Below, piece after piece: positions 5,695-54,638 of a stretch of DNA of 64,000 bases. The number at the start of each line of letters is the position of its first letter. The stretch's first letter is position 1. The notes under the pieces are model-generated. The model was not told the origin of the DNA, did no database searches, and saw only the letters and a program-made list of their open reading frames with translations. Source of the DNA: Planctomycetota bacterium (lineage in GTDB: Bacteria > Planctomycetota > JACQVV01 > JASMLP01); contig JASMLP010000135.1 in the NCBI GenBank assembly GCA_030748635.1, positions 11,862-75,861 of the forward strand, written 5' to 3'. Position numbers and translations under genes: made by a program.

Positions 5695-5759
5695 AAGACA
5701 CGAAACCTCTGGAGAAAAGAAGTTGAATTCACCCTTGCGCAGGGGATAAATAACAATCG

Positions 5760-7206: not shown

Positions 7207-10200
7207 ATGTCCGACCCTTCGAAAACCGAATCATCCAGCACTCGATCGACGGTCCCTCCTCACCAGGATCAGCGATTTGAAAAAATTGTTTTACGGAACG
7301 ATCTCCTGAGTCCGGAAACACTAGGTGAAGCTCGCACTCGGTGGAACAAGCAGTGCCGTAACGGCTCGACCCAGTCCTTTCCTGAGATGCTTGTCGCCGA
7401 GGGACATATAACCACCAAGCAAGCCGCAGCCATTTCAAAGCGCCTGGTACGCCAGATCGCTGGTTACGTCCTGCTCGACAAGATCGGTGTTGGAGGCATG
7501 GGAGCCGTCTATCGAGCGGAACAAAAAAGCCTGGACAAGGTTGTGGCTCTCAAAATCCTTCCTGCCAAACTCGCCGCTGATGAGGATTTCATCAAACGGT
7601 TCGAGCGGGAAGCTCAATCCCTGGCGAAACTCAACCATCCTCATATCGTCCAGGCAATCGACTTTGGCAAAGACAAGGGCCTCTACTACATTTCGATGGA
7701 ATATGTTCCCGGCCAGAGCCTTCTCGACCTGATGAAGAGAGAGAACAAACTTTCCGAAATTCGTGCACTCGAGATCGCGCTTCAAATCGCGATGGCCCTC
7801 GAACATGCATGCGAACACGGCGTGATACATCGGGACATCAAACCGGAGAATATTCTGCTGACCGAGGAGGGAGATGCAAAAATCACCGACTTCGGACTCG
7901 CCAAGGAACCGGAAGCGGGAAACAACGCATTCCGAACAACCGCAGGCCTGACCTTCGGCACCCCCCACTACATGTCACCGGAGCAGGCGGAAGGCCTACC
8001 CGACCTAGACACCCGATCAGACATCTATTCTCTCGGCGCAACTCTCTACCACATGTTGACCGGCAAAACCCCTTTTCGCGGGGATAGCGACGCCGAAATC
8101 ATGACCATGCACCTCGACGCCGAACCCGATGACCCGAGACTGTACTGCCCGGATCTATCCAGCCCGACCGCTACGATGCTCCGCAAAATGATGGCCAAAC
8201 GTCCACGATCTCGTTACCAGCATCCTCATGAAGTATCGCAAAGCATTTTGAAAATTCTTAGCGATGAATTCTCCAGCAGTCAACTCGATCTTCTTACTCG
8301 GCTTCCTTCAGCCACCGGAAAATCTTCCAAGCGCATCCTCCCCACGACCCTCTCCGATTCCAGAAAACCGATTCCCCCTCAACTCACTCTGGCCCTCGCA
8401 GGCGTCATCCTGGCAGGTGTACTTGCAATCGTAATTTTCTCCAACCGATCAACCCCTCCCCCCCCCTCCCCGACTCCTCCTCCCCCCCTCCCATCTGCTC
8501 CCTTGATCGGCATCAATCCGGAATCTCAGGATTTAACTCCTCAAGAACTTCAGGAACGAAATGCCCAAGATCTGTGGAAGCAATACCAAGCCGAGATCAA
8601 AAACTCGCGAGATCACCCTCAACATTCGCTCGAGATCTTGGACCAGATCGTAAAGCTCCATCCAGGACGCTGGGCCGACCAAGCACTTCAAGAAAAGAAG
8701 AGCCTCCTGAGTCAGATAAAATCGGACCAGGCGTTACAACCCCTTACCGCCCGGACGAACACCCTGATCAAGCAACACCAATACGCGAAAGCGATTCACT
8801 TGCTTGGCAGTTTCCAGAAGCAATACCCAGGAACTCCGGCGTCCGAAACTGCCAGCCAACGTATTCTGGAAATCAGATCCTTCTGGAACCGAAGTATCGA
8901 TGAATGGCTCGAGAAAGCCCGCGAATCAGAAAGCAAGGGGGATCTGCAGAATGCGCTGTCGCTCTATGCGCTCCTCGAAATACACGGAAATGCCGAAGGC
9001 CAATCCCTCGGCAAGGCCAACCGTTTGCGGATTCAAACGCTTCGAAATACGCCCAAAAAGAATCCCCTCCAGAAGGAACCTCCAAAACCTTCACGCGGCC
9101 AACCCGACCCCGGCCCCCTCTACGCCAAACTCGTCAACGCTCTCCTCGAGCCCGTTCGATCCCGGAAATACAACGGTGCCCTCCAATTCCTTCAAAGTAT
9201 CGAGGCCGACAGCAACCGAACGCCAGAACACCCGGCCGCCTCCCAACTCCACCAGGACCTCACCAGCATCCAGTCCGTTCTGGAAAAAGCCTCCGAAGCG
9301 TTAAAAAACAACGCCCCCCCTTCTCGAGCTTTTTACATCGATGGTTCTCGCCGCATCCTGGATTCCTTCCGAGACAACCGACTTCACTGGCAACGAAAAT
9401 CACTACCTACCCCCTTATCCGAGCTTCCCACCCGCTACCTCGCGGAACTCGCCGAAACCGGAGGAGCGTCTCCGAAAAGCCTTGGACTCTTCTTGATAGC
9501 CGAAGGCGTTTCGGAAGTCGGACAAGAGATGCTCGAGAAGGCTCAGGTCCCCCAAGCGGAAAAGTCCTGGCGGATTCGTGACTGGTGCGCCCTTCGAGAC
9601 CGCAATCATCCTCGTGAAACCGAAGCGGCCGAGATCGTCCGCTCTCTGCGCAAATCTATCCAGAAGAATTCGTGGAAAGCTTCTCGCCCTCCGATGAGGC
9701 TGATCCGAACCCAATATGCCGACACTTATACAGCGACCCGAGAAGGCGCAGAACTCTGGGATCTTTATCTCGAAATGGGCGCGAAATTATATCCGGTAAA
9801 AAAATTCTTCTCCGGCTCGACCACACAAACGAATCAATCCGTCAAGATCCAGTACCTCTTCACCAAGGAGAACCACCGCCAGGACTGGCGATCAATAGGA
9901 GGAAAAACCTGGACTCCGAGCCCCAAAGGCTGGCACGGAAAAGGAAAGATCCTGCTGCAAAGAGGACACTGGAAAGAAGTTCTGGTCAGTGCGCGCTGGG
10001 AAGCTCACCCCAACCGTGGAGCCGCAAGCATTCTCTTTGGATGGCAAGATCCGGAAAACTACTACTTTTTCGGTCCCCAGTACGATAACCAGAAACTGAA
10101 CACATCACATTTCCACTACGATGAGAACGTTGACAAGTCCATCCCGAAACCTCTGAAAGGCCGCACAACCCAGAAACCTTTCCGAGGATTATTCCCCAGC

Positions 10201-10902
10201 AAAAGCACGCGTCACATCGCGAGAGTCCGCACTCGGCCCAAAGAGATCACAACCTACATCGGCCAAGCCATCGTCAACAAGATTAACGAGCCGAATCCAA
10301 CGGAAGGGAAAATCGGCTTTACCTCCACGAGTTTTCGCATTCTGGAACGGGTAGAAATTGTCGGGACCCTGAACTCCGAATGGAAAATTCAGAAGTCGAA
10401 AACCCTTGTCCTCGCTGAAGAACTGATGGAAGAGTTTGGCTTTTCCAGCGGCAACTATCGATCCGGCTTCCAGGCGACCCTCTACAATTCCACGACCCTC
10501 GATTCCATGAAAGAAGTGCGTCTTGATCCCAGGATCGAATTCAACTGGAATGAAGATCGCCCCTCTCCCAAGCTTCCCGCCGACCGATTTTCTATTCGTT
10601 GGAATGGACACCTCCTGATCCCGAAATCGGGCACCTATGAATTTCAAACCCGCAGTGACGACGGAGTCCGCCTGTACCTGAACAACAAGCGGGTCATCGA
10701 CCACTGGGACCAACATGGGCCAGAAAAGGACTCTTACCGAATCCACCTCGAGCAAGGCCTGGTCCCCATCCAACTGGAATATTTTGAACAGGGGGGAGGA
10801 GCGACGATTTCTCTACAATGGAAATGGGCAGAACAGTCCGAGTGGATTCCCGTTTCCTGGCCCTATATCTTCGTACTCCAGCCATCCAAGACCCGACGAT
10901 GA
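7207..10902 (+). CDS. Transmembrane Hanks-type Ser/Thr protein kinase with extracytoplasmic TPR-like, lectin-like and PA14 domains
   Basis: 1231 aa. The N-terminus has a T2SS-E-N/MshEN-like helical motif (LLSPETLGEARTRW...MLVAEGHITTKQ). It is followed by a kinase core (GVGGMGAVYRA...VALKIL, HRDIKPENILL, DFGLA, GTPHYMSPE). One TM helix (LALAGVILAGVLAIVIF) is followed by a Pro-rich linker and a long TPR-like region. The C-terminal PA14-like domain reads RFSIRWNGHLLIPKSGTYEFQTRSDDGVRLYLNNKRVIDHWDQHG. Confidence 0.85.
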   Translation: MSDPSKTESSSTRSTVPPHQDQRFEKIVLRNDLLSPETLGEARTRWNKQCRNGSTQSFPEMLVAEGHITTKQAAAISKRLVRQIAGYVLLDKIGVGGMGAVYRAEQKSLDKVVALKILPAKLAADEDFIKRFEREAQSLAKLNHPHIVQAIDFGKDKGLYYISMEYVPGQSLLDLMKRENKLSEIRALEIALQIAMALEHACEHGVIHRDIKPENILLTEEGDAKITDFGLAKEPEAGNNAFRTTAGLTFGTPHYMSPEQAEGLPDLDTRSDIYSLGATLYHMLTGKTPFRGDSDAEIMTMHLDAEPDDPRLYCPDLSSPTATMLRKMMAKRPRSRYQHPHEVSQSILKILSDEFSSSQLDLLTRLPSATGKSSKRILPTTLSDSRKPIPPQLTLALAGVILAGVLAIVIFSNRSTPPPPSPTPPPPLPSAPLIGINPESQDLTPQELQERNAQDLWKQYQAEIKNSRDHPQHSLEILDQIVKLHPGRWADQALQEKKSLLSQIKSDQALQPLTARTNTLIKQHQYAKAIHLLGSFQKQYPGTPASETASQRILEIRSFWNRSIDEWLEKARESESKGDLQNALSLYALLEIHGNAEGQSLGKANRLRIQTLRNTPKKNPLQKEPPKPSRGQPDPGPLYAKLVNALLEPVRSRKYNGALQFLQSIEADSNRTPEHPAASQLHQDLTSIQSVLEKASEALKNNAPPSRAFYIDGSRRILDSFRDNRLHWQRKSLPTPLSELPTRYLAELAETGGASPKSLGLFLIAEGVSEVGQEMLEKAQVPQAEKSWRIRDWCALRDRNHPRETEAAEIVRSLRKSIQKNSWKASRPPMRLIRTQYADTYTATREGAELWDLYLEMGAKLYPVKKFFSGSTTQTNQSVKIQYLFTKENHRQDWRSIGGKTWTPSPKGWHGKGKILLQRGHWKEVLVSARWEAHPNRGAASILFGWQDPENYYFFGPQYDNQKLNTSHFHYDENVDKSIPKPLKGRTTQKPFRGLFPSKSTRHIARVRTRPKEITTYIGQAIVNKINEPNPTEGKIGFTSTSFRILERVEIVGTLNSEWKIQKSKTLVLAEELMEEFGFSSGNYRSGFQATLYNSTTLDSMKEVRLDPRIEFNWNEDRPSPKLPADRFSIRWNGHLLIPKSGTYEFQTRSDDGVRLYLNNKRVIDHWDQHGPEKDSYRIHLEQGLVPIQLEYFEQGGGATISLQWKWAEQSEWIPVSWPYIFVLQPSKTRR

Positions 10903-31238: not shown

Positions 31239-32261
31239 TTGACCCCAACCACCCTGAACCATCTTCCGCATGTATGCGGCCACCAGACAGCCATCGATGG
31301 CCTCCTCCGCGCTTTTACTGAAAAGAATCTGCCTCCCGCAATCATCTTTTCGGGTCCGAAAGGGGTTGGAAAACGCCATCTTGCCCAAGTTCTGGCGAGT
31401 ACGATTTGTTGCCCCAATGCGCCAGAACAGGAACCTGAACCTTGTCCCCAATGTCAGCGTATGCTGTCGTCACGTCACCCAGACCTCCTACTCATTCAGC
31501 GTCCTCCTGATCGCCGTAACATCTCGATCAAAGATATACGTTCCTGCCTCCAGCAAATGCAGGAACGTCCCTGGGAGGCTCCCTATCGGATCGCAATCAT
31601 TGATGGGGTTGAAGACCTCTCGCTCCCCGCCGCCAACTGTCTTCTCAAAAGCCTTGAAGAGCCACAAACTTCCCAAATGTATTTGCTAATCACCCAATCC
31701 ATCCAGCGTACCCTAGCGACTATCCGCTCTCGATGTACGGAGGTCCCACTCGGTCCCATACCAGAAAATGAACTGATCCACTTTCTCCAAAATCGACACC
31801 ACATTAGCCTGGACCAAGCGACCCAAGCCGCCCAATCGAGTAAAGGGATTTTTCAACTAGCCCTGGAATCTTGTGACCAGGAACTTCGAGAAAATCGAAA
31901 AAAGCTTTTCGAACACTTGATTCGTTTCGAGTCGCATCCGGAATTCGCCGAAACCCTGATAGGTGAGATGAGGGGCCGTTCCAACGAAGAGCAACGCCAC
32001 GAAACCATCGCTCTGCTCAACCACCTCCTTGAAAAACTTCGCCTTGGCATTCGAGCATCCTTTCTGGGCGAAACCTTCGGCGACTCAGGAACAAAATCAC
32101 GTATCGACCACGCTCATTGGAGACAACTCTGCCATGTAGTAGAAAAGGTCTGCGAAGCGATCGCCGCTCTCACCGCAGGCGCTGCGACTCTGCTTACTCT
32201 TGAATCTCTGATCTTGGACCTGAACAATATCCTTCCCGCAAACATGGGGAGAACCGCATGA
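31239..32261 (+). CDS. holB: DNA polymerase III delta-prime subunit
   Basis: GPKGVGKRHLA, a zinc module (CCPNAPEQEPEPCPQCQ), LLKSLEEPQ and TIRSRC are present. Confidence 0.85.
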   Translation: MTPTTLNHLPHVCGHQTAIDGLLRAFTEKNLPPAIIFSGPKGVGKRHLAQVLASTICCPNAPEQEPEPCPQCQRMLSSRHPDLLLIQRPPDRRNISIKDIRSCLQQMQERPWEAPYRIAIIDGVEDLSLPAANCLLKSLEEPQTSQMYLLITQSIQRTLATIRSRCTEVPLGPIPENELIHFLQNRHHISLDQATQAAQSSKGIFQLALESCDQELRENRKKLFEHLIRFESHPEFAETLIGEMRGRSNEEQRHETIALLNHLLEKLRLGIRASFLGETFGDSGTKSRIDHAHWRQLCHVVEKVCEAIAALTAGAATLLTLESLILDLNNILPANMGRTA

Positions 32262-34687
32262 AAATGGCTACAGTCCGATTTGGCGCAATGCGACAAGTCG
32301 GTGAATTCTATTCCGAAAGTAACGAAGTCCTTCGAGGACAAAAGTGCATCATCCAGACACAAAGAGGCATTGAAGTGGGCACCGTTCTGGTAGCCACTCG
32401 CCCCGTCAAAGATCCCAGTATTCGGAAACAACAGGCAGGCAAGATCCTTCGAGTAGTCAACCAGCAAGACACCCAAAAAATCGACTTTATCGACCAGAGG
32501 GGCAAGTCGAAGGAAGCTCGGCTTTGCGAGGAAGCGATTCAGGAACTGGATTTGCAGATCAAACTCTCCTACACAGAATATCTTTTCGATCAACAAAAAG
32601 TGGTGTTCTACATTCAGTCAGAACAAAGAGTCGATCTTCGTCCACTGACATTAGCGCTTAAGGAAAAGATCCACATTCAAATCGTAATCAAACAGATTGG
32701 CGCCCGAGACGAAGCCCGACTCCTTGGGGACTGGAACGACTGCGGACGAGAACTTTGCTGCCGTAACCACCTTCAGCACCTCTCAAATGTCCCCATGAAA
32801 ATGGCGAAGAGCCAGAAAACCACCTTGGACCCGGCAAAAATATCTGGTCGCTGCGGTCGCCTCAAATGCTGCTTGCGCTACGAACACGACACCTATGTCG
32901 AGTTGAAACAACGCCTACCCAAAAAAGGGAGCAAAGTCCGAACCCGTCACGGTATGGGTGTCGTGATAGGAACAGATGTTCTTTCTCAAATGGTTCGAGT
33001 TCAAATTCAAGGACAACCCCGTTGCCTCTTGCCCGCGACAGAAGTGCTCCCTCTGGAAAAATCAAACGCTGGAAAATCCAGGTCCAGTCAGCTTTCGGAT
33101 CAAGATCAAAAGCGATATATCACGATCCCATTTTCCAATCTTGATTCGCCTATCACATTCACAACAGCCCACGCGGCAGTGGCGGCAGACTCCTATTACC
33201 GCCACCAAAAAAGCCTTGGACACTCCCCCCACTACTTGGCGGGAATCAAAGATCACTCCCGTTCTACCCAGCAGATTTCCCGTAGTGATGTGGACGAGAT
33301 GTTCTCCCGCGGAGATGCGTATCGAAATCAATTTCAAAAGCAGATGGATCTTCTTCAAATCCACCCGGACAAAATATTCCGGACCAAGTCCGAGGTTCAC
33401 AAAAAAACGGTCACCGATTTTTTCCGAAAACTCATCACCAACAATGACATTTATACATGTCGTGTGGATGGCCTTCACTGCACTCGATGCCACATAGCGA
33501 TTTCACACGACCCGCACCCCACATCCGTGCCTCCAAGCCAATGCCCCGACTGCCAGGGGGAACTCGAACCCATTCATGAAGACCCTTACTTCTTCCGGCT
33601 GAAAAAGTTCGAGAAACTTATCCTCCGCCACATTCAAAACCACTCCGACTTTATCAAACCTCAATTCCTGAAAATCGAACTGGAGAACCGGATCAAATCC
33701 GGCCTTAAAGATGTCATTGTAAGTCGCCCAACGTTTGAATATGGAATCCCCATTCCCGGAGAAACCGATCAAATCATTGCCGGATGGTTTGAAGGGCTGA
33801 TCGGTTATATCTCCGCCCTCGCGGACTCGGAGAACAACCAACGCTTCCTCGATTACTGGCCGGCCCACATCCAGATGGTTCAAAGTGAAACGGTCTGGAT
33901 GCATGCGGTGGCCTGGCCCGCCATGCTCCTGGCTGGCGAAGTTTCCCTTCCTGAAAGGATCTTCGTCACCGGTGACTGGAACGTGGATATCGACTCCGAC
34001 CATCCATCTCTCCCGGCTTCGACTTCCCCCTGCGAAATAGCAGAAATCTTCGGATCCGATTCCGTTCGCTATTTCCTGCTCTCCCACGTTCCCTTTGGCA
34101 TGAACGCCGTTTTCCAGGTGAGCGAGTTCCATAAGTCCATACAGCGCAACCTGATCCATGATCTCGACGGCCTAACCCAACGGACACTTTCGCTCACACA
34201 AAAGGTCTTTCACGGCACCATTCCTGACCCGGAAGGGTATGACGGCGATCCAGAAATAAGATCACTCGGCGAGCAGCTTTGCAAAGATATCCGTGAAAAT
34301 ATCGCAACTCTCCAGTTCAGTCGCATTCTCGACGAATTCGGCCATACCGTTCGATCTCTCCGATATCTGCTCGAGGAGAACAAACCTTGGACCTGGCCCC
34401 AGAAGGGCCCGGAGGGACTACCGGCCCGAAAATTCTTCTATTCTCTTCTCGAGTCACTCCGTATTCTCGCCCATCAAATCGGCCCCTTTCTCCCGACGAC
34501 TTCGGCAAGGATGCTTACTCTGTTAGGGATTTCACCGGAAAGTGAACTCTCGCCATCCGATGAGAAATGGGGTCAACTCGAAGTAGGAAAAACTCTCCCG
34601 CCCCCCTCTCCTCTGTTTCCTGAGTTCGAATCCGCGAAATTCGACACTCAATCCTCCTCTAACAACCCTCTCCGCAAATCATCATGA
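32258..34687 (+). CDS. Fusion protein: N-terminal PSP1/RicT (YaaT) domain plus C-terminal methionyl-tRNA-synthetase-like module with degenerate catalytic motifs
   Basis: 809 aa. The first ~290 aa carry the PSP1 C-terminal region (GDWNDCGRELCCRNHL...GRCGRLKCCLRYE). The remainder aligns to MetRS: a Zn knuckle (CTRCH...CPDCQ), DVIVSRPTFEYGIPIPG, WFEGLIGYISAL, WPAMLLAGE, VRYFLLSH and an anticodon-binding region (RYLLEENKPWTWPQ). At the HIGH-motif position the sequence reads PITFTTAHA, and at the KMSKS position it reads DSDHPS. Confidence 0.8.
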   Translation: MKMATVRFGAMRQVGEFYSESNEVLRGQKCIIQTQRGIEVGTVLVATRPVKDPSIRKQQAGKILRVVNQQDTQKIDFIDQRGKSKEARLCEEAIQELDLQIKLSYTEYLFDQQKVVFYIQSEQRVDLRPLTLALKEKIHIQIVIKQIGARDEARLLGDWNDCGRELCCRNHLQHLSNVPMKMAKSQKTTLDPAKISGRCGRLKCCLRYEHDTYVELKQRLPKKGSKVRTRHGMGVVIGTDVLSQMVRVQIQGQPRCLLPATEVLPLEKSNAGKSRSSQLSDQDQKRYITIPFSNLDSPITFTTAHAAVAADSYYRHQKSLGHSPHYLAGIKDHSRSTQQISRSDVDEMFSRGDAYRNQFQKQMDLLQIHPDKIFRTKSEVHKKTVTDFFRKLITNNDIYTCRVDGLHCTRCHIAISHDPHPTSVPPSQCPDCQGELEPIHEDPYFFRLKKFEKLILRHIQNHSDFIKPQFLKIELENRIKSGLKDVIVSRPTFEYGIPIPGETDQIIAGWFEGLIGYISALADSENNQRFLDYWPAHIQMVQSETVWMHAVAWPAMLLAGEVSLPERIFVTGDWNVDIDSDHPSLPASTSPCEIAEIFGSDSVRYFLLSHVPFGMNAVFQVSEFHKSIQRNLIHDLDGLTQRTLSLTQKVFHGTIPDPEGYDGDPEIRSLGEQLCKDIRENIATLQFSRILDEFGHTVRSLRYLLEENKPWTWPQKGPEGLPARKFFYSLLESLRILAHQIGPFLPTTSARMLTLLGISPESELSPSDEKWGQLEVGKTLPPPSPLFPEFESAKFDTQSSSNNPLRKSS

Positions 34688-47523: not shown

Positions 47524-48168
47524 TCAGCGATCCTCACTTGAGTGACTGGAAGAGTCAGATGAGGGCGTTTCAGGGTCCACGGGTCGATCCGACACCTTTT
47601 GGCCAACGGTTTCTTTCTGACTCGTAACCAGTTTTAAAATGGGTAAGGCCGCGGGGAGGCGATCGGTGCCAAACCACGCTTCATCATCCCCACCCACTCG
47701 AGGCATGAGGTCCCAGAGATGGGGAACGCTGGCCCCTCTTACATACATCTGATATATCGACTCATCAATCTGGTCCTGAATAGAACTACCCATAATCGGG
47801 AGGATCAGGCACTCAACCCCCTCGCCCAAGATAACCAGAGGACCGTTCACAACCCCCGAAATGACGTAGGAAATCGGAAAATGGAAAACAAGTTGCGCCC
47901 CCGTTCCAATCGGATTGGTGGGAAGCCAGCTATCTTGCAAAGCGTTTGACTCCCCTCCATTTCTGAAACGAAGAATCTGTTCAAAATCCTGTTCTGCTCG
48001 CTCAACCACCGCAGCGGGAACTGCGGGGGGAGCGGTCGAACAACCAAAGAACAATCCGCTGGCCAGGAAAACAAGCCCTGGGTTCCGGAGAACCGCTAAA
48101 ATCTTCACCACCTTACAACCTCCCGGAAAAGAAGCCTGCAGCCTACCTCCCGCACCTTCAGGTGACAA
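47524..48168 (-). CDS. Hypothetical lipoprotein
   Basis: A hydrophobic leader with LFFGCSTAP sits about 20 codons into the ORF, so the true start is probably an internal GTG. No family recognised. Confidence 0.35.
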   Translation of the reverse strand: MSPEGAGGRLQASFPGGCKVVKILAVLRNPGLVFLASGLFFGCSTAPPAVPAAVVERAEQDFEQILRFRNGGESNALQDSWLPTNPIGTGAQLVFHFPISYVISGVVNGPLVILGEGVECLILPIMGSSIQDQIDESIYQMYVRGASVPHLWDLMPRVGGDDEAWFGTDRLPAALPILKLVTSQKETVGQKVSDRPVDPETPSSDSSSHSSEDR

Positions 48169-48306
48169 GACCGATCGTTGCTGTCCTCCCCGACCTTCGA
48201 TACTCTGTCTGCGCGTCCCTTTTCTGGATCTGGTACTGGAATCGTCGATCCTATCATCAGTCTCAAGTTAGCTTTCTGCCAGACTAAGGAACCACAGGAG
48301 AGTCGG

Positions 48307-50451
48307 ATGAAGCAGGTCTTTCAACAGTACCGTAGCGGTCGAATCGAAATCATCGAGGTTCCTGCACCTACTCTGGAATCTGGCATGATTCTTGTGGCCA
48401 ATGCCTATTCGATCATCTCCACCGGTACCGAACGGGCCAAGGTCGAAATGGGAGATCGAAGCCTGATCGGCATGGCCATGGCACGCCCGGACCTGGCCTC
48501 CAAGGTTGTGGACATGGTGCGCCGTGAAGGTATCGCTTCGGCGGCCCGAGCGGTTCGAAATAAGCTAGACCGCCCGACTCCCTTGGGCTATTCATCAGCA
48601 GGCACCGTCCTACAGATCAGTCCTGATGTCCGAGGGGTCGCTCCTGGTGATCGGGTAGCTTGTGCCGGCGGAGAATATGCGTACCACGCCGAAATCATTC
48701 GTGTACCCAAGAATCTTTTTGCTCCCGTCCCCCCCGAAGTCGACCTGAAAGAATCCGCTTTCGCCACCCTAGGCGCAATCGCAATGCAGGGAGTCCGGCG
48801 CCTGGAGCCGGTACTTGGTGAAACCGTCGTCGTCATCGGACTAGGGTTGATCGGGCTCCTTTCGGTCCAGATTCTTCGTGCTGCCGGTATCCGTGTACTT
48901 GCCATCGACATTTCTAATGAACGAGTCGAACTCGCCAAGGACCTCGGAGCCTCGGATGGATGGTCGCGCCAAAGTGAAAATCTCGAAAACCGCGTCCTGG
49001 GCGCAACGCAAAACCGTGGCGCTGACGGCATTCTCGTCACTGCGAGCACCAAACAAAACGACCCACTCGTTCTTGCCGGCCATCTGGCTCGTGAGCGAGG
49101 ACGAGTCGTCCTCGTAGGTGACGTCGAGATCCAATTGCCTCGTGAACCCTACTACCTCAAAGAGATCGACTTCCGATTTTCCCGATCCTACGGTCCCGGC
49201 CGCTATGACAAGGCGTACGAAGAAAAAGGCCTCTCCTATCCACCCGCCTACGTCCCCTGGACCGAGAAAAGAAACCTAGAGTGTTTCCTGGACCTGTTGG
49301 CCCAGAACCAGGTTTCCATTGCTCCCCTGATCACCGAAACCATCCCCTTCGAAGAATCTCCCAACGCTTTCCAGCAACTCAAGAATCGTGACGCCCCCCC
49401 CATCGCCCTCGCCCTTGAATACCCGCCAGGAGTGACCTCCCCTCCTCCTACCGAACCTTTCATTCCTGCCCAACCGATATCCGGAGAGATCCGAACGGCC
49501 CTGATTGGAGCCGGAAACTTTGCCGTCAAATATCTGATCCCCTTCCTCAAATCGGACTCCCGCATTCGCCTTCAGAGCATCGCAGCATCTCGGGGTGGAT
49601 CCTCGGAATCTGTCGCCCGACAGTTCGGCTTTCGATCCGCGCAAACCGCCGAAGAGGTCCTTTCCGACCCCTCGATCGACCTTCTCTTGATCGCCACCCG
49701 ACACGATTCTCACACCGATCTGGCCGTGAAGGCGCTCGGCCGTGGCCTGTATATCCACCTGGAAAAACCGATGGCTTGCACAGAAGAGGAGCTAAAGCGG
49801 CTTCATCAGGCCTATTCCGAACGGCCCGGTGGGTTTCTCCATGTCGGATTCAACCGTCGATTTGCTCCTCTGATCCAACCGATGACACAATTCATGGAAG
49901 AGGTTCCTGGCCCTGGCATTCTCCACCTAAGAGTGCTTGCAGGCCAGCTGCCAGCGGATCACTGGCTTCTCGACCCGGACATCGGTGGAGGTCGTTTGAT
50001 CGGTGAAGGTTGCCACTTTATCGATCTGGCCCACTTCCTGATCCGATCTCGACCGATTCGGTGCCAGGCATCCGCACGAAGAATAGACACCGAATCACCC
50101 CTCGAGAACCAGGACGTCGCGATCTCCGTGGAATACGAAGATGGGTCCCTGGCCAACATCTTGTACCTCTCCACCGGCGCGACCGGTCCAGGCAAAGAGC
50201 GGATCGAATACCACCGAGGAAACCGCAGCACGATCCTGGACGATTTTCGGGTCCTCGAATGCTGGCAAGAAGGACGCCTTGTCACTCGCACTCGAAGCCG
50301 ATCTGATAAGGGACACCGCAATCAGATCGAGTGTCTCATCGAGGCCACCGCTCAAGGTCAAAACTCGCCCGTACCTTTCGAAGAGTCCCTGGCCACTCAC
50401 CAAACTCTCTTCGAAGCGCTTAGATCCCTTTCAGGAATCTCCCACTCTTGA
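48307..50451 (+). CDS. Bi-domain oxidoreductase: N-terminal zinc-type alcohol dehydrogenase (MDR) fold fused to C-terminal Gfo/Idh/MocA NAD(P)-dependent oxidoreductase
   Basis: I place the start at MKQVFQQYRSG (48307). The MDR Rossmann motif is VVVIGLGLIGLLSV. The second Rossmann reads RTALIGAGNFAVKYLIPFL, with the Gfo/Idh/MocA EKP motif (LEKPMA). Confidence 0.8.
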   Translation: MKQVFQQYRSGRIEIIEVPAPTLESGMILVANAYSIISTGTERAKVEMGDRSLIGMAMARPDLASKVVDMVRREGIASAARAVRNKLDRPTPLGYSSAGTVLQISPDVRGVAPGDRVACAGGEYAYHAEIIRVPKNLFAPVPPEVDLKESAFATLGAIAMQGVRRLEPVLGETVVVIGLGLIGLLSVQILRAAGIRVLAIDISNERVELAKDLGASDGWSRQSENLENRVLGATQNRGADGILVTASTKQNDPLVLAGHLARERGRVVLVGDVEIQLPREPYYLKEIDFRFSRSYGPGRYDKAYEEKGLSYPPAYVPWTEKRNLECFLDLLAQNQVSIAPLITETIPFEESPNAFQQLKNRDAPPIALALEYPPGVTSPPPTEPFIPAQPISGEIRTALIGAGNFAVKYLIPFLKSDSRIRLQSIAASRGGSSESVARQFGFRSAQTAEEVLSDPSIDLLLIATRHDSHTDLAVKALGRGLYIHLEKPMACTEEELKRLHQAYSERPGGFLHVGFNRRFAPLIQPMTQFMEEVPGPGILHLRVLAGQLPADHWLLDPDIGGGRLIGEGCHFIDLAHFLIRSRPIRCQASARRIDTESPLENQDVAISVEYEDGSLANILYLSTGATGPGKERIEYHRGNRSTILDDFRVLECWQEGRLVTRTRSRSDKGHRNQIECLIEATAQGQNSPVPFEESLATHQTLFEALRSLSGISHS

Positions 50452-52730
50452 TGAAGGTCCCCCCCCTGAACGTGGTCAAAAATTCTCTCGACCGCTTGAT
50501 CCTTCTAGGTGAATCCAAGAGATGGCGGGGCCCGGATCCCTACGACGCTCTTTCTGGACCGATCGACTTTCTGTTCCGCTCTCTCCCAGCGAGAAAATGG
50601 ACCCGTCTCGCCTGGACTCAATTCTGGAAGCGCTTTCCGTTCGATCTTCGACGTGTCCTGGGAGTCCATTCCGAATGCAACCCAAAAGCCCTCGGACTCG
50701 TTGTCCACGCATATCTATCTCTTGGCGACCTACCGCGCGCTCGCTACTGGGCTGAAAAACTCTCGGCGTTATCCGTTGAGCCTGGATCTTTCGGCTATCC
50801 GTTTCCCTGGCAAGGACGCGCACACTTCTTGCCCTCTCGAACCCCCAATCTGGTCGCCACCTGTTTTGCAGTCGCCGCTCTTCACGATTTCGATCTTGCC
50901 GCCGGAGAAAATCGCTTCGAGCATCACCTCGAGGGGGCACACCACTTTCTTCATTCTCAGTTACTCAACTCCCATGGAGATTTTCTGTCCTATTTCAAAA
51001 GCCCACGCGTCGAAGTTCACAACGCCAATCTGCTTGGAGCCGAGATCCTTGCTCGCGCAGGAGATCATCATACCGCTTCCATCCTGGTAGAAAGTTCGCT
51101 GGCAGAGCAACTTCAGAACGGTTCTCTTCGCTATGGTCGAGCTACCCATCATCAGTGGATAGACAATTTTCACACCGCGTTCAACCTCGCCTCTCTCTGC
51201 CGAATCCAAAACCGTATAGGGGAAAATCGCTGGGAAAATCAGATCGCCAGAATGGCCACCCACTGGCGCCGCCATTTCTTCCCACCTGGACAGTTCCCCC
51301 TCGAAAACACAGCATCCTCCCGTCCCTGCCAAACCCATGCGATAGGAGTCGCTCTCGCTTTCCTACCGTCCTTTTCTCCTTTCCTGGAAGATGGCGAGGA
51401 TCTGGCCCATTCTCTGACAGCCCTTTCTCTTCAGCATCTGCGTTCTCCCCGAGGTTGGTTCTATGATGCTCCTGGCTTTCCTCGGTCCGCCCGGTACATG
51501 CGCTGGACTCAATGCTGGATGCTTTTAGGACTTTCCCGCTATGTCCAGCAACAACGCAGGAAACAGATTGCCACACAACCCAAAACCCCCGCCCTTTCCG
51601 ACTCTCGCCCCCCCGGACCCCACCCCCACGTACCCTCGTCGCCTCCACGCAACGCAATTCGCCGCAAGCCCAAGGTATGGTTAGACTTCGAGAACTCCCC
51701 TCACGTTCCGTTCCTGGCCCCGTTCCGCGAGCGTTTTCTTTCACAAGGTTGGGATGTCCTCTGCACCGCGCGCGATCGAGCTCAAACTCTTCCCCTCCTC
51801 CAACTGTACGGATTCGACCATGAAGCCGACCCAGATCCGATTCCAACCACGCGAATAGGCAAAGCGCTCGCGATTCTCAACCGCACATTTTCCCTCATTT
51901 TCCGATTTCGATCGCAACGTCCTGACCTGGCCATTTCCCACGGTTCTCGAGCCCAATGTCTAGCCGCTCGAATCCTGGGCATTCCTTGTATTACCTTCCT
52001 CGATTATGAATTCGTTGAGCAGGGACTCTTCCGGCACTGTTGTCGTCAAATCCTCGTCCCTGAGGTGATCGACACCGAGGTATCGAATCCATCGCCCAGC
52101 CACTCCCGCTATCAGACCTACCCGGGGATCAAAGAAGAGATATATCTCGGAGCTCCCGCTCCAGGATCGGTCGGCGCGGATGCATTCGATGACGCACAGG
52201 TTCCCCACTCATCGATCCGAATACTCGCGCGACCTCCTGCAACTCGATCTCACTATGTCGCCGATTCTCAGGAGGGGGTGGGTTCGTTATTCGAACGCGT
52301 ACTTCACCAACTCCTCGATCATCACTCCGCCCATGTGCTTCTCCTCAGCCGCTACGGCGACGCTCAAACCTGGCGTTCACGACTTCCCGCCGACAAAGCC
52401 TCTCGGATTCATATCCCCGAAAAAGTGTACGACTGCAGAGAACTGTTGACCACCGCCGATCTCGTTGTTGGAGCCGGAGGAACCATGACACGAGAAGCCG
52501 CGACTCTGGGAATTCCTGCCATTACCGCTTTTCCAGGAACTCTGGGAGCTGTCGATAAATACCTCGTTGAATCAGGGCGCCTCCAGGTTCTGGAAACAAT
52601 CGATGACCTTCAGACCCTACAGATCGGAAAGCGTTCCCAAAGTCTTCGCCCAGCACCTGGCCCACACCTCTTTGACGAAATTTTCGAAAACATCACAAGG
52701 CTATACCGACCTCGACAACCGAACAACTGA
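50448..52730 (+). CDS. Large fusion protein: N-terminal domain of unknown function (possibly heparinase II/III-like alpha-toroid) plus C-terminal GT-B-fold-like (DUF354-like) domain
   Basis: 760 aa, coupled to the oxidoreductase by a 4-nt overlap. A Pro-rich linker (PKTPALSDSRPPGPHPHVPSSPP) separates the two halves. The C-terminal half begins VWLDFENSPHVPFLAPFRERFLSQGWDVLCTARD and ends with a GT-B C-lobe-like VVGAGGTMTREAATLGIPAI. Confidence 0.5.
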   Translation: MMKVPPLNVVKNSLDRLILLGESKRWRGPDPYDALSGPIDFLFRSLPARKWTRLAWTQFWKRFPFDLRRVLGVHSECNPKALGLVVHAYLSLGDLPRARYWAEKLSALSVEPGSFGYPFPWQGRAHFLPSRTPNLVATCFAVAALHDFDLAAGENRFEHHLEGAHHFLHSQLLNSHGDFLSYFKSPRVEVHNANLLGAEILARAGDHHTASILVESSLAEQLQNGSLRYGRATHHQWIDNFHTAFNLASLCRIQNRIGENRWENQIARMATHWRRHFFPPGQFPLENTASSRPCQTHAIGVALAFLPSFSPFLEDGEDLAHSLTALSLQHLRSPRGWFYDAPGFPRSARYMRWTQCWMLLGLSRYVQQQRRKQIATQPKTPALSDSRPPGPHPHVPSSPPRNAIRRKPKVWLDFENSPHVPFLAPFRERFLSQGWDVLCTARDRAQTLPLLQLYGFDHEADPDPIPTTRIGKALAILNRTFSLIFRFRSQRPDLAISHGSRAQCLAARILGIPCITFLDYEFVEQGLFRHCCRQILVPEVIDTEVSNPSPSHSRYQTYPGIKEEIYLGAPAPGSVGADAFDDAQVPHSSIRILARPPATRSHYVADSQEGVGSLFERVLHQLLDHHSAHVLLLSRYGDAQTWRSRLPADKASRIHIPEKVYDCRELLTTADLVVGAGGTMTREAATLGIPAITAFPGTLGAVDKYLVESGRLQVLETIDDLQTLQIGKRSQSLRPAPGPHLFDEIFENITRLYRPRQPNN

Positions 52731-52733
52731 CGG

Positions 52734-54638
52734 TCAAGTCCAGGTTTCCCACTCCTGATACAGTTCAGCAAGGTCTGTTTCCAGTTCAGATAGTCGAGTA
52801 GTCAATTCCATCAACTGTTCATGATCGGAATAGACATCCTCCTCTTCCATCTGAGCCTGGATCTCTGCCATTTCTTCTTCGTGCTCGATGATCAACCGTT
52901 CAAGCGTTTCGTAGTTATAACGCCGTTTCCGAACCGGCTCTGAAGGCTTTCTGGCCACTCTATTCTGTGGCGATTCCGAGTCGAAAGTGCCGGAACCCTT
53001 CGCCAGGTTTCTTGCCTCGGGAAGCCCTTGCCCATTCTCCCTCCGAGTTCCCCCCCATTTCCCCTCGATCTCTCGAACCGTCCCATCCGGCAAAATCTCT
53101 ACGACCCGATCGACGACTCGACTCAGAAGCCATCGATCGTGCGTTACGAGAATGGCTGCCCCAGGATAATCGGACAGATGAGTTTCGAGCGCTTCCCGCC
53201 CAGGAATATCCAGGTGGTTGGTCGGCTCATCGAAGAAGAGCAAATTGGCGCTCGACAGGAGAAGGCGAGCCAATGCGAGCCGACTACGCTCTCCACCAGA
53301 AAGGTTGTCTACCGACGCAAAAACCTCTTCTCCCCGAAATCCGAACCGAGCCAGATAGCTCCGAGCCGTTCCGGGAGTCCACTCTGACCGAGCAGAGAGA
53401 ATCTCTTCAATCACTTCGCTGTGACCCGCGAGATTCCCCGATTCCTGGTGATACACCGCCAACCGAACTGTCCCGCCCAGATGCACCTCACCCTCATCGG
53501 GTTCCAGTTCCTTGGCAAGAATCCGCAACAAAGTGCTCTTACCCGAACCGTTAGGACCGATCAAACCGACGACATCTCCGGCCCTGACAGTCAGATGAAC
53601 CCCACGCAATAGAGGTTTTTCTCCAAATTGCTTGCAGATTCCCCGGGCATCGATCACCCGATTCCCCAGACGTGGCACATTGGTAAAGTCCATGACCAGT
53701 GAACGTTCATCCTGGGTATAGATCGGCAATTCTTCAGCCTCCGAGTCGAGACGCTGAAGTTTTTTCTGCCGACTCCTCGCCTGGGAAACGTTCTGACCGG
53801 CAATATTTTTGCGAACAAAATCTACCTGCCGAGCGCGTTCTTCCTCGAGGCGTTCCTTTTGGCGTTTTGCATTCTCGATACGTTCCGCTCGTTGTCTCAA
53901 AAATTCTTGATACCCGCCACGATACGAGAATGCGCTTCCTCCCCGTTCCAGATGAACAATCCGATCGACAACCCGATCCAGGAAAGTGCGATCGTGGCTC
54001 ACAACGATCAACGCTCCTCCCCTCTGTTTCAGAACTTTTTCCAGCCAATCGATCCTTTCCAGATCCAGGTGATTGGTCGGCTCATCCAGCAACCAGAGGT
54101 CGGCGGGAGTCAACAATGTTCGCGCCAGAGCCAATCGAACTTTTTCTCCTCCAGAAAGAGATTTTACTGATCGCCCCCTCATTTCACGAGAAAAGCCGAG
54201 GCGATCAAGAACTCGTTCCGTTTCCGCCTGATAGGTATATCCCCCGCCATGCTCGAAGCGTAACTGCAGACGTCCATGTCTCTTTTCAAGGTCCGCACGA
54301 TGAGGCTCCTTTTCCATCGCCTCTTCAACCGCAGCCAATTCCTCCCCGACTTGACGCAAACCGACAAAAGCCATCCCGGCGAACTCTTCGACCGACGCAT
54401 TATCGTCCAATTCGATCAATTGCTTATGGAGACGTACGTTCAGATTTTTCGAACGGAAGATCTCTCCCTCATCCGGAGAAGACTCATTCGCAATCACCTC
54501 GAGCAAGGTTGTTTTTCCCGACCCGTTAGAACCGATCAGCCCGAGTCGTTCCCCTTGATTCACCTCGAAACGAACTTTTCGAAGAACGGTTCGTCCCCCT
54601 AGGCGCTTGCTGACATCCTGAACCCGTAGCAGGCTCAT
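52734..54638 (-). CDS. ABC-F family ATPase (tandem ABC domains, no permease; translation/antibiotic-resistance-type)
   Basis: Two Walker A motifs (GSNGSGKTTLL, GPNGSGKSTLL), two LSGGE signatures and an inter-domain coiled-coil linker. Confidence 0.9.
   Translation of the reverse strand: MSLLRVQDVSKRLGGRTVLRKVRFEVNQGERLGLIGSNGSGKTTLLEVIANESSPDEGEIFRSKNLNVRLHKQLIELDDNASVEEFAGMAFVGLRQVGEELAAVEEAMEKEPHRADLEKRHGRLQLRFEHGGGYTYQAETERVLDRLGFSREMRGRSVKSLSGGEKVRLALARTLLTPADLWLLDEPTNHLDLERIDWLEKVLKQRGGALIVVSHDRTFLDRVVDRIVHLERGGSAFSYRGGYQEFLRQRAERIENAKRQKERLEEERARQVDFVRKNIAGQNVSQARSRQKKLQRLDSEAEELPIYTQDERSLVMDFTNVPRLGNRVIDARGICKQFGEKPLLRGVHLTVRAGDVVGLIGPNGSGKSTLLRILAKELEPDEGEVHLGGTVRLAVYHQESGNLAGHSEVIEEILSARSEWTPGTARSYLARFGFRGEEVFASVDNLSGGERSRLALARLLLSSANLLFFDEPTNHLDIPGREALETHLSDYPGAAILVTHDRWLLSRVVDRVVEILPDGTVREIEGKWGGTRRENGQGLPEARNLAKGSGTFDSESPQNRVARKPSEPVRKRRYNYETLERLIIEHEEEMAEIQAQMEEEDVYSDHEQLMELTTRLSELETDLAELYQEWETWT

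Follow-up and report, generated by a model that had tools for sequence, protein, structure and literature searches.

The 64-kb stretch of planctomycete DNA analyzed here (the window) raises the question of what a two-domain oxidoreductase (ORF1) and an adjoining large protein fused from two further domains (ORF2) do together, and whether that fusion is real. Our preferred answer, to which we assign a probability of about 0.55, is that the two genes form a compact three-component cytoplasmic cassette of Wzx/Wzy-type surface-polysaccharide biosynthesis, which tailors uronic amino sugars. As three genes, the cassette is found in many bacterial loci for surface polysaccharides (EPS, O-antigen or capsule), where it probably makes unusual acidic sugars.

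Organization of the locus

Both open reading frames lie where a preliminary description of this DNA had placed them (Table 1). The initiating Met of ORF1 is the same Met at which its homologs start, and a scan for consensus promoters upstream of ORF1 gave no useful match. ORF2 can start at a TTG, which yields 760 aa and the previously described 4-nt overlap with ORF1 (TTGA), or at an ATG, the choice made by JGI, which yields 759 aa and an overlap of 1 nt. Since the two reading frames overlap, translational coupling is probable. The neighboring gene upstream is divergent and the one downstream convergent, so that the pair probably constitutes a self-contained two-gene operon. No signal peptide or transmembrane segment is predicted in either protein. 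Except for two distant ArnT-like genes and uppS, there are no other polysaccharide-assembly genes in the window, and the pathway context discussed below is taken over from other genomes.

Table 1. Positions of the features within the window.
Feature	Position	Strand	Basis or remark
Shine-Dalgarno-like AGGAGA	48296..48301	+	read in sequence; 5 nt upstream of ORF1 ATG
ORF1, bi-domain-containing oxidoreductase, 714 aa	48307..50451	+	Pfam; ATG at 48307
ORF1 N-terminal MDR (alcohol-dehydrogenase-fold) domain, non-zinc, GxGxxG Rossmann motif	48307..49422	+	ADH_zinc_N and ADH_N matches
ORF1 C-terminal Gfo/Idh/MocA domain	49480..50448	+	PF01408 and PF22725 matches
ORF1 stop/ORF2 start overlap	50448..50453	+	TGA 50449-50451; TTG 50448 or ATG 50451
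ORF2, 759/760-aa fusion protein, predicted cytoplasmic	50448..52730	+	end at 52730
ORF2 N-domain, residues 1-370, VpsJ-like (alpha/alpha)6 barrel	50448..51557	+	
Pro-rich interdomain linker, residues 371-408	51558..51671	+	27% Pro over residues 372-408
ORF2 C-domain, residues 409-760, DUF354, GT-B fold	51672..52727	+	

Identity of the three components

The earlier reading of ORF1 as an MDR protein fused to a Gfo/Idh/MocA protein is borne out by Pfam matches to both parts, namely ADH_zinc_N (residues 182-303, E 1e-14) and, weakly, ADH_N (85-130) in the first, and GFO_IDH_MocA (395-506, E 2e-21) and the GFO C-terminal domain (549-628) in the second. In the MDR domain, the zinc-ligand Cys and GHE motifs are replaced by STGTE and GYS, and the family invariants S35, S38, G40, T41, E42, G94, Y95, C119 and H127 are kept together with the SRSYGPGRYD motif (292-301). 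The invariants of the Gfo/Idh/MocA domain comprise G401xG403, the EKP motif (E486-K487-P488), GFNRR (514-518), GGGR (560-563), E567, C569, H570 and D573. There are at least 7993 homologs of ORF1. Those listed at the top share 42-49% identity with it along their entire length, and several of them carry the NCBI name "bi-domain-containing oxidoreductase". Judged by its sequence, ORF1 is a typical, full-length member of this family, with a non-zinc MDR domain and every family invariant present.

Residues 1-370 of ORF2 have no Pfam or NCBIfam match, even at E<=1. This domain is an (alpha/alpha)6 barrel of a large family labeled VpsJ by JGI: its subfamily aligns with the JGI-named VpsJ proteins at an hhalign probability of 100% over 391 columns, and the domain itself is 24-27% identical to the subfamily bearing that name. 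Structural matches place its fold close to those of GlcNAc and cellobiose 2-epimerases. The family invariants include H191, H242 and H297 as well as R53, R124 and R352, only three Asp and no Glu. The domain also occurs in other proteins, joined to GT4, GT2 and methyltransferase domains that are cytoplasmic. The preliminary description had suspected a heparinase II/III-like domain here, which must be abandoned, as neither PF16889 nor PF07940 is matched and comparison with the heparinase II/III-like neighbors of ORF1 homologs gives an hhalign probability of 1.4%.

The link to V. cholerae VpsJ rests on the JGI annotation names and the matching fold description. Deletion of vpsJ in V. cholerae causes BPP-Glc-ManNAcA to accumulate, and from this mutant phenotype VpsJ was proposed to be a new class of C5 epimerase that converts ManNAcA to L-GulNAcA on the bactoprenyl-PP-linked disaccharide, its fold likewise being described as similar to GlcNAc and cellobiose 2-epimerases (PMC13463779, mBio 2026). 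The parallels extend to the loci of the ORF2 homologs, which are Wzx/Wzy loci that produce 2-acetamido uronic acids and contain an Epimerase_2 gene, one of them also having a CapK/VpsH-like gene. The domain studied here differs in sharing a polypeptide with DUF354 and in having a bi-domain oxidoreductase as its coupled partner. The published description of the vps pathway mentions neither of these; it assigns the corresponding steps to VpsK, a WecG-like transferase, and VpsB, a dedicated dehydrogenase (PMC13463779).

For the C-terminal half of ORF2, the suggested DUF354 domain (PF04007; residues 409-721, E 5e-32, 111.7 bits, the cut-off being 22) with a GT-B fold was confirmed, but its designation as a glycosyltransferase was not, since the nearest solved structures are UDP-GlcNAc 2-epimerases, followed by GT1 transferases. 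Homology to Epimerase_2 is remote, although it spans the full length (hhalign 92.6%), and the Epimerase_2 Pfam score lies below threshold (12.7 bits vs 30.6). What DUF354 has in common with the enzymes of that family (WecB/MnaA, WbpI, CapG, NeuC) are nucleotide-binding features, with PR aligned to HPR and GGGTMxRE to DSGGxQEE. The epimerase catalytic acids are mostly not conserved: a Ser stands opposite the catalytic Asp of the epimerase "GD", the HVEAGLR segment is deleted, and DUF354 has an invariant set of its own (WxD, NSPH, SHGS, DYE, KE, AHY). No significant sequence match to transferase families was found for the domain. GT1 enzymes carry a catalytic His after strand 1, and GT1 and GT28 enzymes share a C-terminal nucleotide-sugar binding motif. 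By comparison with such inverting GT-B enzymes (CalG1, SpnG, MurG), the invariant His after strand 1 of DUF354 (NSPH) would occupy the place of the GT1 catalytic His, and its C-terminal GGGT..E may correspond to the binding motif. A transferase was also predicted for DUF354 in an earlier computational study, with few catalytic residues conserved (PMC4520260). Because the nearest folds are 2-epimerases, yet the epimerase acids are mostly unconserved, neither assignment is secure.

Genomic neighborhoods in other bacteria

The three components are genomic neighbors in hundreds of unrelated bacteria, and this synteny strongly supports the sugar-modifying module that the preliminary description had proposed. 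Among 80 genome loci sampled from at least 577 with the alpha/alpha gene, a DUF354 gene is found within 10 kb in 54; it directly adjoins in 17 and has one gene, usually Epimerase_2, in between in 34. The same 80 loci contain WbpB- and WbpE-like genes in 39 cases, Epimerase_2 in 44 and a bi-domain oxidoreductase in 15. Separate DUF354 and alpha/alpha genes reside within Wzx/Wzy polysaccharide loci with WbpB/D/E-like genes, and the alpha/alpha genes are surrounded by Bac_transf initiating transferases, Wzx, Wzy, Wzz/Poly_export, GT2/GT4, AsnB and FemAB-like genes. Furthermore, the order seen in the window (bi-domain oxidoreductase, alpha/alpha, DUF354) is also found with each component encoded by a gene of its own, the three genes overlapping, at L038, L092, L094, L100 and the P0349 locus, the last of which also contains a CapK_C/VpsH-like gene.

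The converse sample comprised the 80 closest relatives of ORF1, with the bi-domain gene recovered in 79 loci. Directly downstream of it, a heparinase II/III-like gene is commonest (14 of 79), which made the earlier guess about ORF2 a sensible one, as 10 loci have a VpsJ-like gene there instead; a D-glucuronyl-C5-epimerase-like gene (PF06662) is directly downstream in 3 and at position +3 in 4 additional loci. These partners are nearly mutually exclusive, being present in 19, 14 and 8 loci, respectively, with a single locus having two of them. The alpha/alpha gene is present in 15 of the 80 loci and in 12 of the 40 that are at least 12 kb long. Partnership with the bi-domain oxidoreductase is thus frequent, but not obligatory. 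AsnB amidotransferase is another recurrent partner (23 ORF1-relative loci), and we read it and the CapK_C/VpsH-like protein as acting on the uronate carboxylate.

The D-glucuronyl C5-epimerases (C5-epim_C) and the heparinase II/III-like proteins both have an architecture of alpha/alpha helical repeats, and both have C5 of uronic acids as their site of action. Glce is a C5 epimerase, and the lyases of the heparinase II/III and alginate types remove the proton from C5, so all three partners have a C5-uronate precedent. Next to bi-domain oxidoreductases, C5-epim_C and heparinase II/III-like genes fill the slot otherwise taken by a VpsJ-like gene and are hardly ever found together with it, but no sequence homology to the VpsJ-like domain is demonstrable (34% hhalign probability over 52 columns for Glce-type epimerases), and both are absent from the top structural matches of the ORF2 N-domain. 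V. vulnificus YJ016 provides a probable genetic example of a bi-domain oxidoreductase, judged by annotation only: VV0357 ("zinc-binding dehydrogenase") and the adjoining heparinase II/III-like VV0358 are both needed for capsule (PMC6037467). The arrangement of an oxidoreductase followed by an (alpha/alpha)-type partner is the same, whereas the partner of ORF1 is VpsJ-like and fused to DUF354.

Proposed function and alternatives

Based upon these features, a sequence of reactions can be proposed. The DUF354 domain would bind a 2-acetamido (or 2,3-diacetamido) hexuronic acid in nucleotide-activated form and most likely transfer this sugar to an undecaprenyl-diphosphate-linked acceptor; epimerization or hydrolysis of the nucleotide sugar would be a less likely role. 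The VpsJ-like barrel would then invert C5 of the uronic acid by abstracting and returning the proton next to the carboxylate, the invariant His and Arg residues of the barrel, three of each, being candidates for this role. This would give a rare uronic amino sugar of the L configuration, e.g. of the L-GulNAcA type. The two dehydrogenase domains of ORF1 presumably tailor this residue as well, by NAD(P)-dependent redox chemistry, possibly making the C6 carboxylate needed by the epimerase, or oxidizing and reducing a ring carbon. Fusion of DUF354 to the barrel may allow the product of one step to be handed directly to the next.

It is considerably less probable that the cassette serves a free-sugar or nucleotide-sugar pathway. 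In that case DUF354 would resemble NeuC or PseG in being a (possibly hydrolyzing) NDP-sugar 2-epimerase or a hydrolase. The reducing sugar so released would be the substrate of the barrel, acting as a 2-epimerase of the AGE type or as an isomerase, and ORF1 would oxidize or reduce the free sugar, ultimately yielding a rare monosaccharide precursor for later re-activation. The remote homology to Epimerase_2 and a weak PseG match (NCBIfam) would agree with such a role for DUF354, but the altered catalytic Asp and the missing HVEAGLR segment would not, and a bona fide Epimerase_2 gene, usually right beside the DUF354 gene, adjoins in 27 of 54 full-length loci, which argues against DUF354 duplicating a 2-epimerase. 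For the barrel, a profile comparison with PDB sequences has the YihS-type isomerase group as its best match (E 0.06), whereas the intermediate that accumulates in the vpsJ mutant is lipid-linked (PMC13463779). Gfo/Idh/MocA and MDR enzymes typically use free sugars or polyols, yet neither a re-activating nucleotidyltransferase nor a NeuB-like synthase is among the recurrent neighbor families. The operon stands here without a transferase, flippase or polymerase nearby, but its relatives elsewhere reside in Wzx/Wzy loci.

It is more doubtful still that the N-domain works as a glycoside hydrolase or lyase, as GH76, GH88 or GH105 enzymes do, and trims, edits or recycles polymer like AlgL or PssZ instead of epimerizing it. 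GH88, GH105, GH8 and the EPS hydrolase PssZ are indeed among its structural matches, albeit at only 4-13% identity, and some family members have precomputed weak PF07470 (GH88) matches and the JGI name "YesR", but the N-domain in the window lacks any GH Pfam match. Polymer-editing hydrolases are normally exported, whereas this domain has no signal peptide and is fused to cytoplasmic biosynthetic enzymes, and its His/Arg-rich invariants would be unlike the carboxylate pairs of these GH families.

Origin and rarity of the fusion

The ORF2 fusion is genuine, because an independently assembled JGI contig encodes the identical 759-aa protein; over 18,262 nt this contig differs by 11 mismatches and is free of gaps (99.94% identity). 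A TARA Oceans contig with 93% nucleotide identity has the same ORF1/ORF2 junction. The idea of a decaying pseudogene, or of a sequencing, assembly or frameshift error that joined two genes, draws on the occurrence of the halves as separate genes in almost all relatives, but is largely refuted by the gap-free second assembly, by the retention of all family-invariant residues in both domains, by the high-confidence structure models of both and by further fusions elsewhere. The Pro-rich linker noted previously lies outside both family alignments. The fusion is also rare, as the preliminary description had surmised: only 3 fused proteins are found among the best 150 of 3261 matches (1.84 billion cluster representatives). 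Even so, three other independent fusions of DUF354 with the barrel exist in both domain orders, and the Rosetta-stone evidence includes P0002 and P0153 in the reverse order and P0151 and P0190 in the same order as ORF2.

Gene setting and principal reading

ORF1 and ORF2, two adjoining genes of the window, are well supported as a compact form of a recurrent cassette which tailors a uronic amino sugar during the synthesis of polysaccharide repeat units. The cassette combines a bi-domain oxidoreductase (ORF1) with a VpsJ-like (alpha/alpha)6 barrel and a DUF354 domain, the latter two being joined in ORF2 and mostly encoded by separate genes elsewhere. All three components were already known as sequence families and the cassette itself is common; what is new, as far as could be searched, is the fusion itself, the connection of DUF354 with VpsJ-like proteins, and the alternation of three C5-type partners behind the bi-domain oxidoreductase. 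The cassette is presumably cytoplasmic, since the ORF1 and ORF2 proteins both lack a signal peptide or transmembrane segment.

Features of the window discussed in the text
Feature	Position (nt)	Strand	Length (aa)	Description
ArnT-like pair and uppS	2489-6536	+		Tandem PMT_2 (GT-C) glycosyltransferase genes, then undecaprenyl-diphosphate synthase
Kinase gene	7207-10902	+	1231	Ser/Thr protein kinase with C-terminal PA14 carbohydrate-binding-type domain
dnaA	29799-31100			Mid-window
Two-domain ORF	32258-34687	+	809	PSP1 C-terminal domain (residues 62-147) and class-I methionyl-tRNA synthetase domain (residues 301-644)
Upstream neighbour	47524-48168	-	214	Divergent from ORF1
ORF1	48307-50451	+	714	Bi-domain oxidoreductase; ATG 48307 to TGA 50449-50451
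ORF2	50448 (TTG) or 50451 (ATG) to 52730	+	760 or 759	Barrel (residues 1-370), Pro-rich linker, DUF354 (residues 409-760)
Downstream neighbour	52734-54638			ABC-F ATPase, convergent on ORF2

The start of ORF1 is best placed at its listed ATG, because the motif AGGAGA lies 5 nt upstream and the same Met begins all homologues in the family alignment. For ORF2, the ATG is the likelier of the two candidate starts. The two genes do overlap, as the preliminary description had it, with the 4 nt given there applying to the TTG start and only 1 nt to the likelier ATG. Given the divergent gene upstream and the convergent gene downstream, ORF1 and ORF2 appear to form their own transcription unit; promoter and terminator scans returned counts at or below those expected from shuffled sequence. 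The upstream neighbour, called at 195 aa by JGI on a near-identical contig, has no Pfam match even at E<=1. The flanking genes are of unrelated housekeeping or regulatory kinds (SNase, HU, UbiA, a GGDEF-EAL regulator, cystathionine-type PLP enzymes, HEAT-repeat proteins and an ECF sigma factor) and the remainder of the 64-kb window holds no polysaccharide locus, its sole other glycan-related genes being two ArnT-like PMT_2 genes and uppS.

Neighbourhoods of the barrel and the oxidoreductase in other genomes

Loci encoding the barrel were sampled at one genome per species, and the best 80 of at least 577 loci are described here. They derive from phyla including the Acidobacteriota, Desulfobacterota, Verrucomicrobiota, Planctomycetota and Aminicenantes, from beta-proteobacteria, and from one Methanosarcinales archaeon. 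A DUF354 gene lies within 10 kb of the barrel gene in 54 of the 80, upstream of it in 53 and adjoining it in 17, while in 34 loci a single gene, usually Epimerase_2, separates the two. Epimerase_2 itself occurs in 44/80 loci, WbpB- plus WbpE-like genes in 39/80 and a bi-domain oxidoreductase in 15/80. The usual order begins with genes of the Gfo/WbpB, hexapeptide acetyltransferase/WbpD and DegT/WbpE types, followed by DUF354, often Epimerase_2, and the barrel, after which may come a GT2 or a weakly NodB-like 333-aa protein and then variously YdjC, FemAB-like, SDR, AsnB and Wzy genes. These loci also include genes for initiating phosphoglycosyl transferases, Wzx, Wzz and Poly_export, and by their gene content they are Wzx/Wzy-type polysaccharide loci. 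Their nucleotide-sugar genes constitute the known route to UDP-2,3-diacetamido-2,3-dideoxy-(gluc/mann)uronic acid. It is this setting of nucleotide-sugar and Wzx/Wzy genes around barrel and DUF354 genes in other genomes which bears out the earlier suggestion of a sugar-modifying module. The principal rival to repeat-unit tailoring is a pathway acting on free sugars or nucleotide sugars.

The gene order of the window (oxidoreductase, barrel, DUF354) recurs as three separate, overlapping genes in five loci: L038, L092, L094, L100 and the locus of P0349, a homologue named "VpsJ", which also carries a CapK_C (VpsH-like) gene. In 2x2 comparisons the co-occurrence of DUF354 with Epimerase_2, WbpE or the bi-domain oxidoreductase was not significant (p 0.08-0.76) among these loci, which are not phylogenetically independent. 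UDP-sugar 6-dehydrogenase genes were present in only 5/85 barrel loci, a count that is merely suggestive, as such a gene may sit elsewhere in the genome. A ~333-aa uncharacterised family occurs in 34/85 loci (e.g. L062:12202-13200), in many of them next to the barrel gene, and matches polysaccharide deacetylases weakly (E 0.018). In other barrel loci a comparable place is taken by YdjC-type deacetylases, and the module may include deacetylation as a further step.

A complementary picture arises from the oxidoreductase. The 80 closest metagenomic relatives of ORF1 (38-45% identity) yielded 79 loci with the bi-domain gene, in which the recurrent neighbours are GT4 (24 loci), AsnB (23), heparinase II/III-like (20), VpsJ-like barrel (15), carbamoyltransferase (14), Epimerase_2 (11) and D-glucuronyl C5-epimerase-like PF06662 proteins (8). 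The heparinase II/III-like, VpsJ-like and PF06662 genes are nearly mutually exclusive, occurring in 19, 14 and 8 loci with just one locus encoding two of them, and the gene immediately following the oxidoreductase is of these types in 14, 10 and 3 loci, respectively. For all three families there is either precedent or a proposal for C5 chemistry on uronic acids, and AsnB- and CapK-like proteins act upon carboxylates. The alternation of these partners behind one oxidoreductase points to uronic-acid C5/C6 chemistry. [quoted passage not shown] A second type of cassette behind the bi-domain oxidoreductase was encountered in L104, L105, L109, L136 and L161 (at about 12-16 kb in locus coordinates); it encodes a carbamoyltransferase, a 421-aa protein without family assignment, a C5-epim_C protein and a GT4, with Poly_export on the opposite strand.

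ORF1 is a member of a large oxidoreductase family

The fusion of an MDR half with a Gfo/Idh/MocA half, recognized initially from the sequence, is evident from both Pfam domains and family motifs. ORF1 matches ADH_zinc_N, weakly ADH_N, and GFO_IDH_MocA together with its C-terminal domain, with PF01408 scoring 77.5 bits against a cut-off of 24. We defined bi-domain oxidoreductases as single chains of ~710-780 aa having ADH_zinc_N followed by GFO_IDH_MocA plus the family-invariant motifs, and ORF1 conforms in every respect, as SRSYGPGRYD, EKP, GFNRR and GExCHFxD are all kept. Strong invariants occur in both halves of the family alignment; the GxGxxG Rossmann motif belongs to the MDR half, and the Gfo half retains GxG, EKP, GFNRR and GExCHFxD, with G401-A-G403 and E486-K487-P488 being invariant. 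Zinc-dependent MDR alcohol dehydrogenases bind the metal through the Cys of GxCxxD and the His/Glu of GHE. These ligand motifs are absent from ORF1 and its whole family, in which S-x-G-T-E and G-Y-S replace the Cys and GHE ligands, and the MDR half is therefore of the non-zinc type.

Judged by sequence, ORF1 is a typical representative of a very large family with at least 7993 homologues, the best listed of which are 42-49% identical over the full length and in several cases carry the NCBI name "bi-domain-containing oxidoreductase". Closest to it is a protein with 96% identity, encoded on a TARA Oceans contig that shares 93% nucleotide identity with the window, followed by one of 49% identity in a Planctomycetes MAG; together with the kinds of neighbouring gene, these matches make a marine planctomycete the probable source of the window. 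The literature searched reports no function for bi-domain oxidoreductases.

The C-terminal half of ORF2 is a DUF354 protein with a GT-B fold

A DUF354-like fold of the GT-B type had been suspected for this half, and both parts of that assignment hold. PF04007 matches at E 5e-32 (111.7 bits against a gathering threshold of 22) over profile positions 2-312 of 349, and every residue invariant in an alignment of 60 DUF354 sequences is kept in the window protein (WxD, NSPH, SHGS, DYE, KE, RPP..AHY, PR and GGGTMxRE). The AlphaFold2 model built from this alignment (pLDDT 91.4) comprises two Rossmann domains, and the GT-B fold can be regarded as established at the level of predicted structure. Searches with the domain profile against PDB sequences gave nothing significant, NCBIfam has no model for the family, and the DUF354 literature extends no further than one computational prediction, a 2015 study in which DUF354 was predicted to be a "glycosyl transferase" with few conserved catalytic residues (PMC4520260).

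The family is remotely akin to the Epimerase_2 proteins encoded beside DUF354 genes: profile-profile comparison with hhalign gave 92.6% probability over 335 columns, with the nucleotide-binding C-terminal motifs in correspondence. When the epimerase catalytic acids (the Asp of GD, the Glu of HVEAGLR and the Glu of PEE) were taken from invariant columns of the locus-encoded epimerases and traced through this remote alignment, the GD Asp was found to be Ser in DUF354, the HVEAGLR segment was deleted, and only the PEE Glu was matched, by E521. Epimerase_2 (PF02350) itself scores 12.7 bits on ORF2 against a threshold of 30.6 and covers only the C-terminal 70 residues. The sub-threshold score and the missing catalytic residues together rule out a canonical UDP-GlcNAc 2-epimerase.

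We lean towards DUF354 being a transferase rather than a nucleotide-sugar-modifying enzyme, for several reasons. Firstly, the NSPH-type His following strand 1 recalls the catalytic His of GT1 enzymes. Secondly, a true Epimerase_2 usually adjoins DUF354 (27/54 full-length loci), with no mutual avoidance between the two. Thirdly, DUF354 is fused elsewhere to GT4, NodB-deacetylase and Wzx-like modules. The indications of transferase activity in the domain itself are limited to similarity of fold and resemblance of motifs. Examples of the fusions with a GT4 transferase, a NodB-type polysaccharide deacetylase and a Wzx-like flippase are P0162, P0169 and P0211, and "long" DUF354 genes with a NodB-type extension of ~320 aa occur in 11 loci (L028:6598-7700 and 10 similar).

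The N-terminal half of ORF2 is a VpsJ-like barrel

The N-terminal half has no Pfam or NCBIfam match even at E<=1, and neither sequence nor profile searches against PDB sequences gave anything significant. Its homologues are mostly standalone proteins of ~420 aa, while in the remainder the barrel is joined to a methyltransferase, GT4, GT2 or Wzy_C domain. The model from a 21-sequence alignment predicts an (alpha/alpha)6 barrel of six hairpins (pLDDT 89, pTM 0.91), for which the top Foldseek match is an AGE-type glucose 2-epimerase. The heparinase II/III-like character once proposed for this half must be abandoned: neither PF16889 nor PF07940 matches at E<=1, and the model is all-alpha without a beta-sandwich. 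Comparison by hhalign with the heparinase II/III-like and C5-epim_C proteins of the ORF1-relative loci gave 1.4% for the former and, for the latter, 34% over a single 52-column hairpin; as Pfam likewise gives no match, homology to Glce-type C5-epim_C (PF06662) is not demonstrable. Glucuronyl C5-epimerase and heparinase II/III are both absent from the two lists of structural matches.

The invariant residues of the barrel include His 191, 242 and 297, Arg 53, 124 and 352, and Asp 30, 33 and 239, with zero Glu, and many of them, including the three His, lie at helix starts in the alignment and model. A rival possibility is that the barrel is a hydrolase or lyase. We judge a His/Arg-rich set lacking Glu to be more in keeping with abstracting a proton from a carboxylated sugar than with hydrolysing a glycoside. 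The barrel profile matched YihS weakly (E 0.06), and any equivalence of the three His to the catalytic His pair of AGE-type enzymes would be tentative.

JGI repeatedly applies the name "polysaccharide biosynthesis protein VpsJ" to one subfamily of barrel homologues, which aligns with that of the window at a probability of 100% (hhalign, E 1.7e-64, 391 columns); the VpsJ-annotated P0029 matches the ORF2 N-domain at E 1e-11. Deletion of vpsJ in V. cholerae leads to accumulation of bactoprenyl-PP-Glc-ManNAcA, and VpsJ, whose predicted fold is similar to that of GlcNAc and cellobiose 2-epimerases, is proposed to be a new class of C5 epimerase making L-GulNAcA (PMC13463779, July 2026). The connection of the window barrel to V. 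cholerae VpsJ (VC0926) is indirect, running through VpsJ-annotated proteins, and the epimerase role is a proposal even for VpsJ; a homologue search seeded with a "VpsJ"-named protein returned no Vibrio sequence among its matches.

The fused architecture is genuine and rare

An artefactual fusion can be rejected, as a JGI contig from a separate assembly, with 11 substitutions relative to the window over 18,262 nt, carries the same fused protein unchanged. The architecture is as unusual as it was first thought to be: when 1.84 billion cluster representatives were searched exhaustively with HMMER, 3261 matched, and among the best 150 of these only three contain both domains, P0151 and P0190 arranged as in ORF2 and P0153 in reverse. 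P0002 is likewise a reverse-order fusion, and the reverse-order fusions are located in loci that have the majority gene order. The closest standalone DUF354 protein is 48% identical to that of the window and the closest alpha/alpha relatives ~35-36% (36% being the best among GTDB representatives). Since the window fusion and three others join DUF354 and the barrel in both orders, the two domains probably act on the same substrate, an argument which is independent of gene order. The same-order fusion P0151 (739 aa; L173:8461-10680) likewise has no polysaccharide genes in its vicinity; Por_Secre_tail and IgGFc_binding genes are found around it, suggestive of a host of the Bacteroidota type.

Proposed function

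Within the tailoring cassette, DUF354 would handle or transfer a nucleotide sugar, the barrel would epimerise C5, and ORF1 would perform redox tailoring, possibly including oxidation at C6. A bolder reading, to which we give roughly one chance in seven, is that the triad represents an undescribed and self-sufficient route to an L-hexosaminuronic acid, with DUF354 as a new glycosyltransferase family. By this route, DUF354 would add a sugar of HexNAc type to the lipid-linked repeat unit and tailoring would follow transfer: the two NAD(P) domains of the oxidoreductase would jointly convert the C6 alcohol to a carboxylate in situ, and the VpsJ-like barrel would invert C5 last. Such in-situ oxidation would account for the rarity of UDP-sugar 6-dehydrogenases in barrel loci, and the heparinase II/III-like and Glce-like proteins beside the same oxidoreductase in other bacteria would be equivalents of the epimerase.

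If the tailoring reading holds, it provides a testable joint function for DUF354, the bi-domain oxidoreductases (at least 8,000 sequences) and the VpsJ-like barrels (at least 577 loci). It also bears upon the bacterial synthesis of rare L-uronic amino sugars, L-GulNAcA in the matrix of cholera biofilms being one example, for which the window offers compact, soluble proteins as test material. Even if the chemistry proves to be ordinary, many polysaccharide loci would gain a useful annotation.

Other features of the window

GC skew is negative in every 2-kb bin of window 1-64000 (-0.07 to -0.27), irrespective of gene strand, and its sign does not change at dnaA. The ArnT-like pair and the undecaprenyl-diphosphate synthase gene lie 42 kb from ORF1 and ORF2, and a gene for a PilZ-domain protein follows that of the PA14-containing kinase. 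Directly after a holB-like gene and dnaA, the two-domain ORF may represent an unusual PSP1-MetRS fusion or else two genes read as one.
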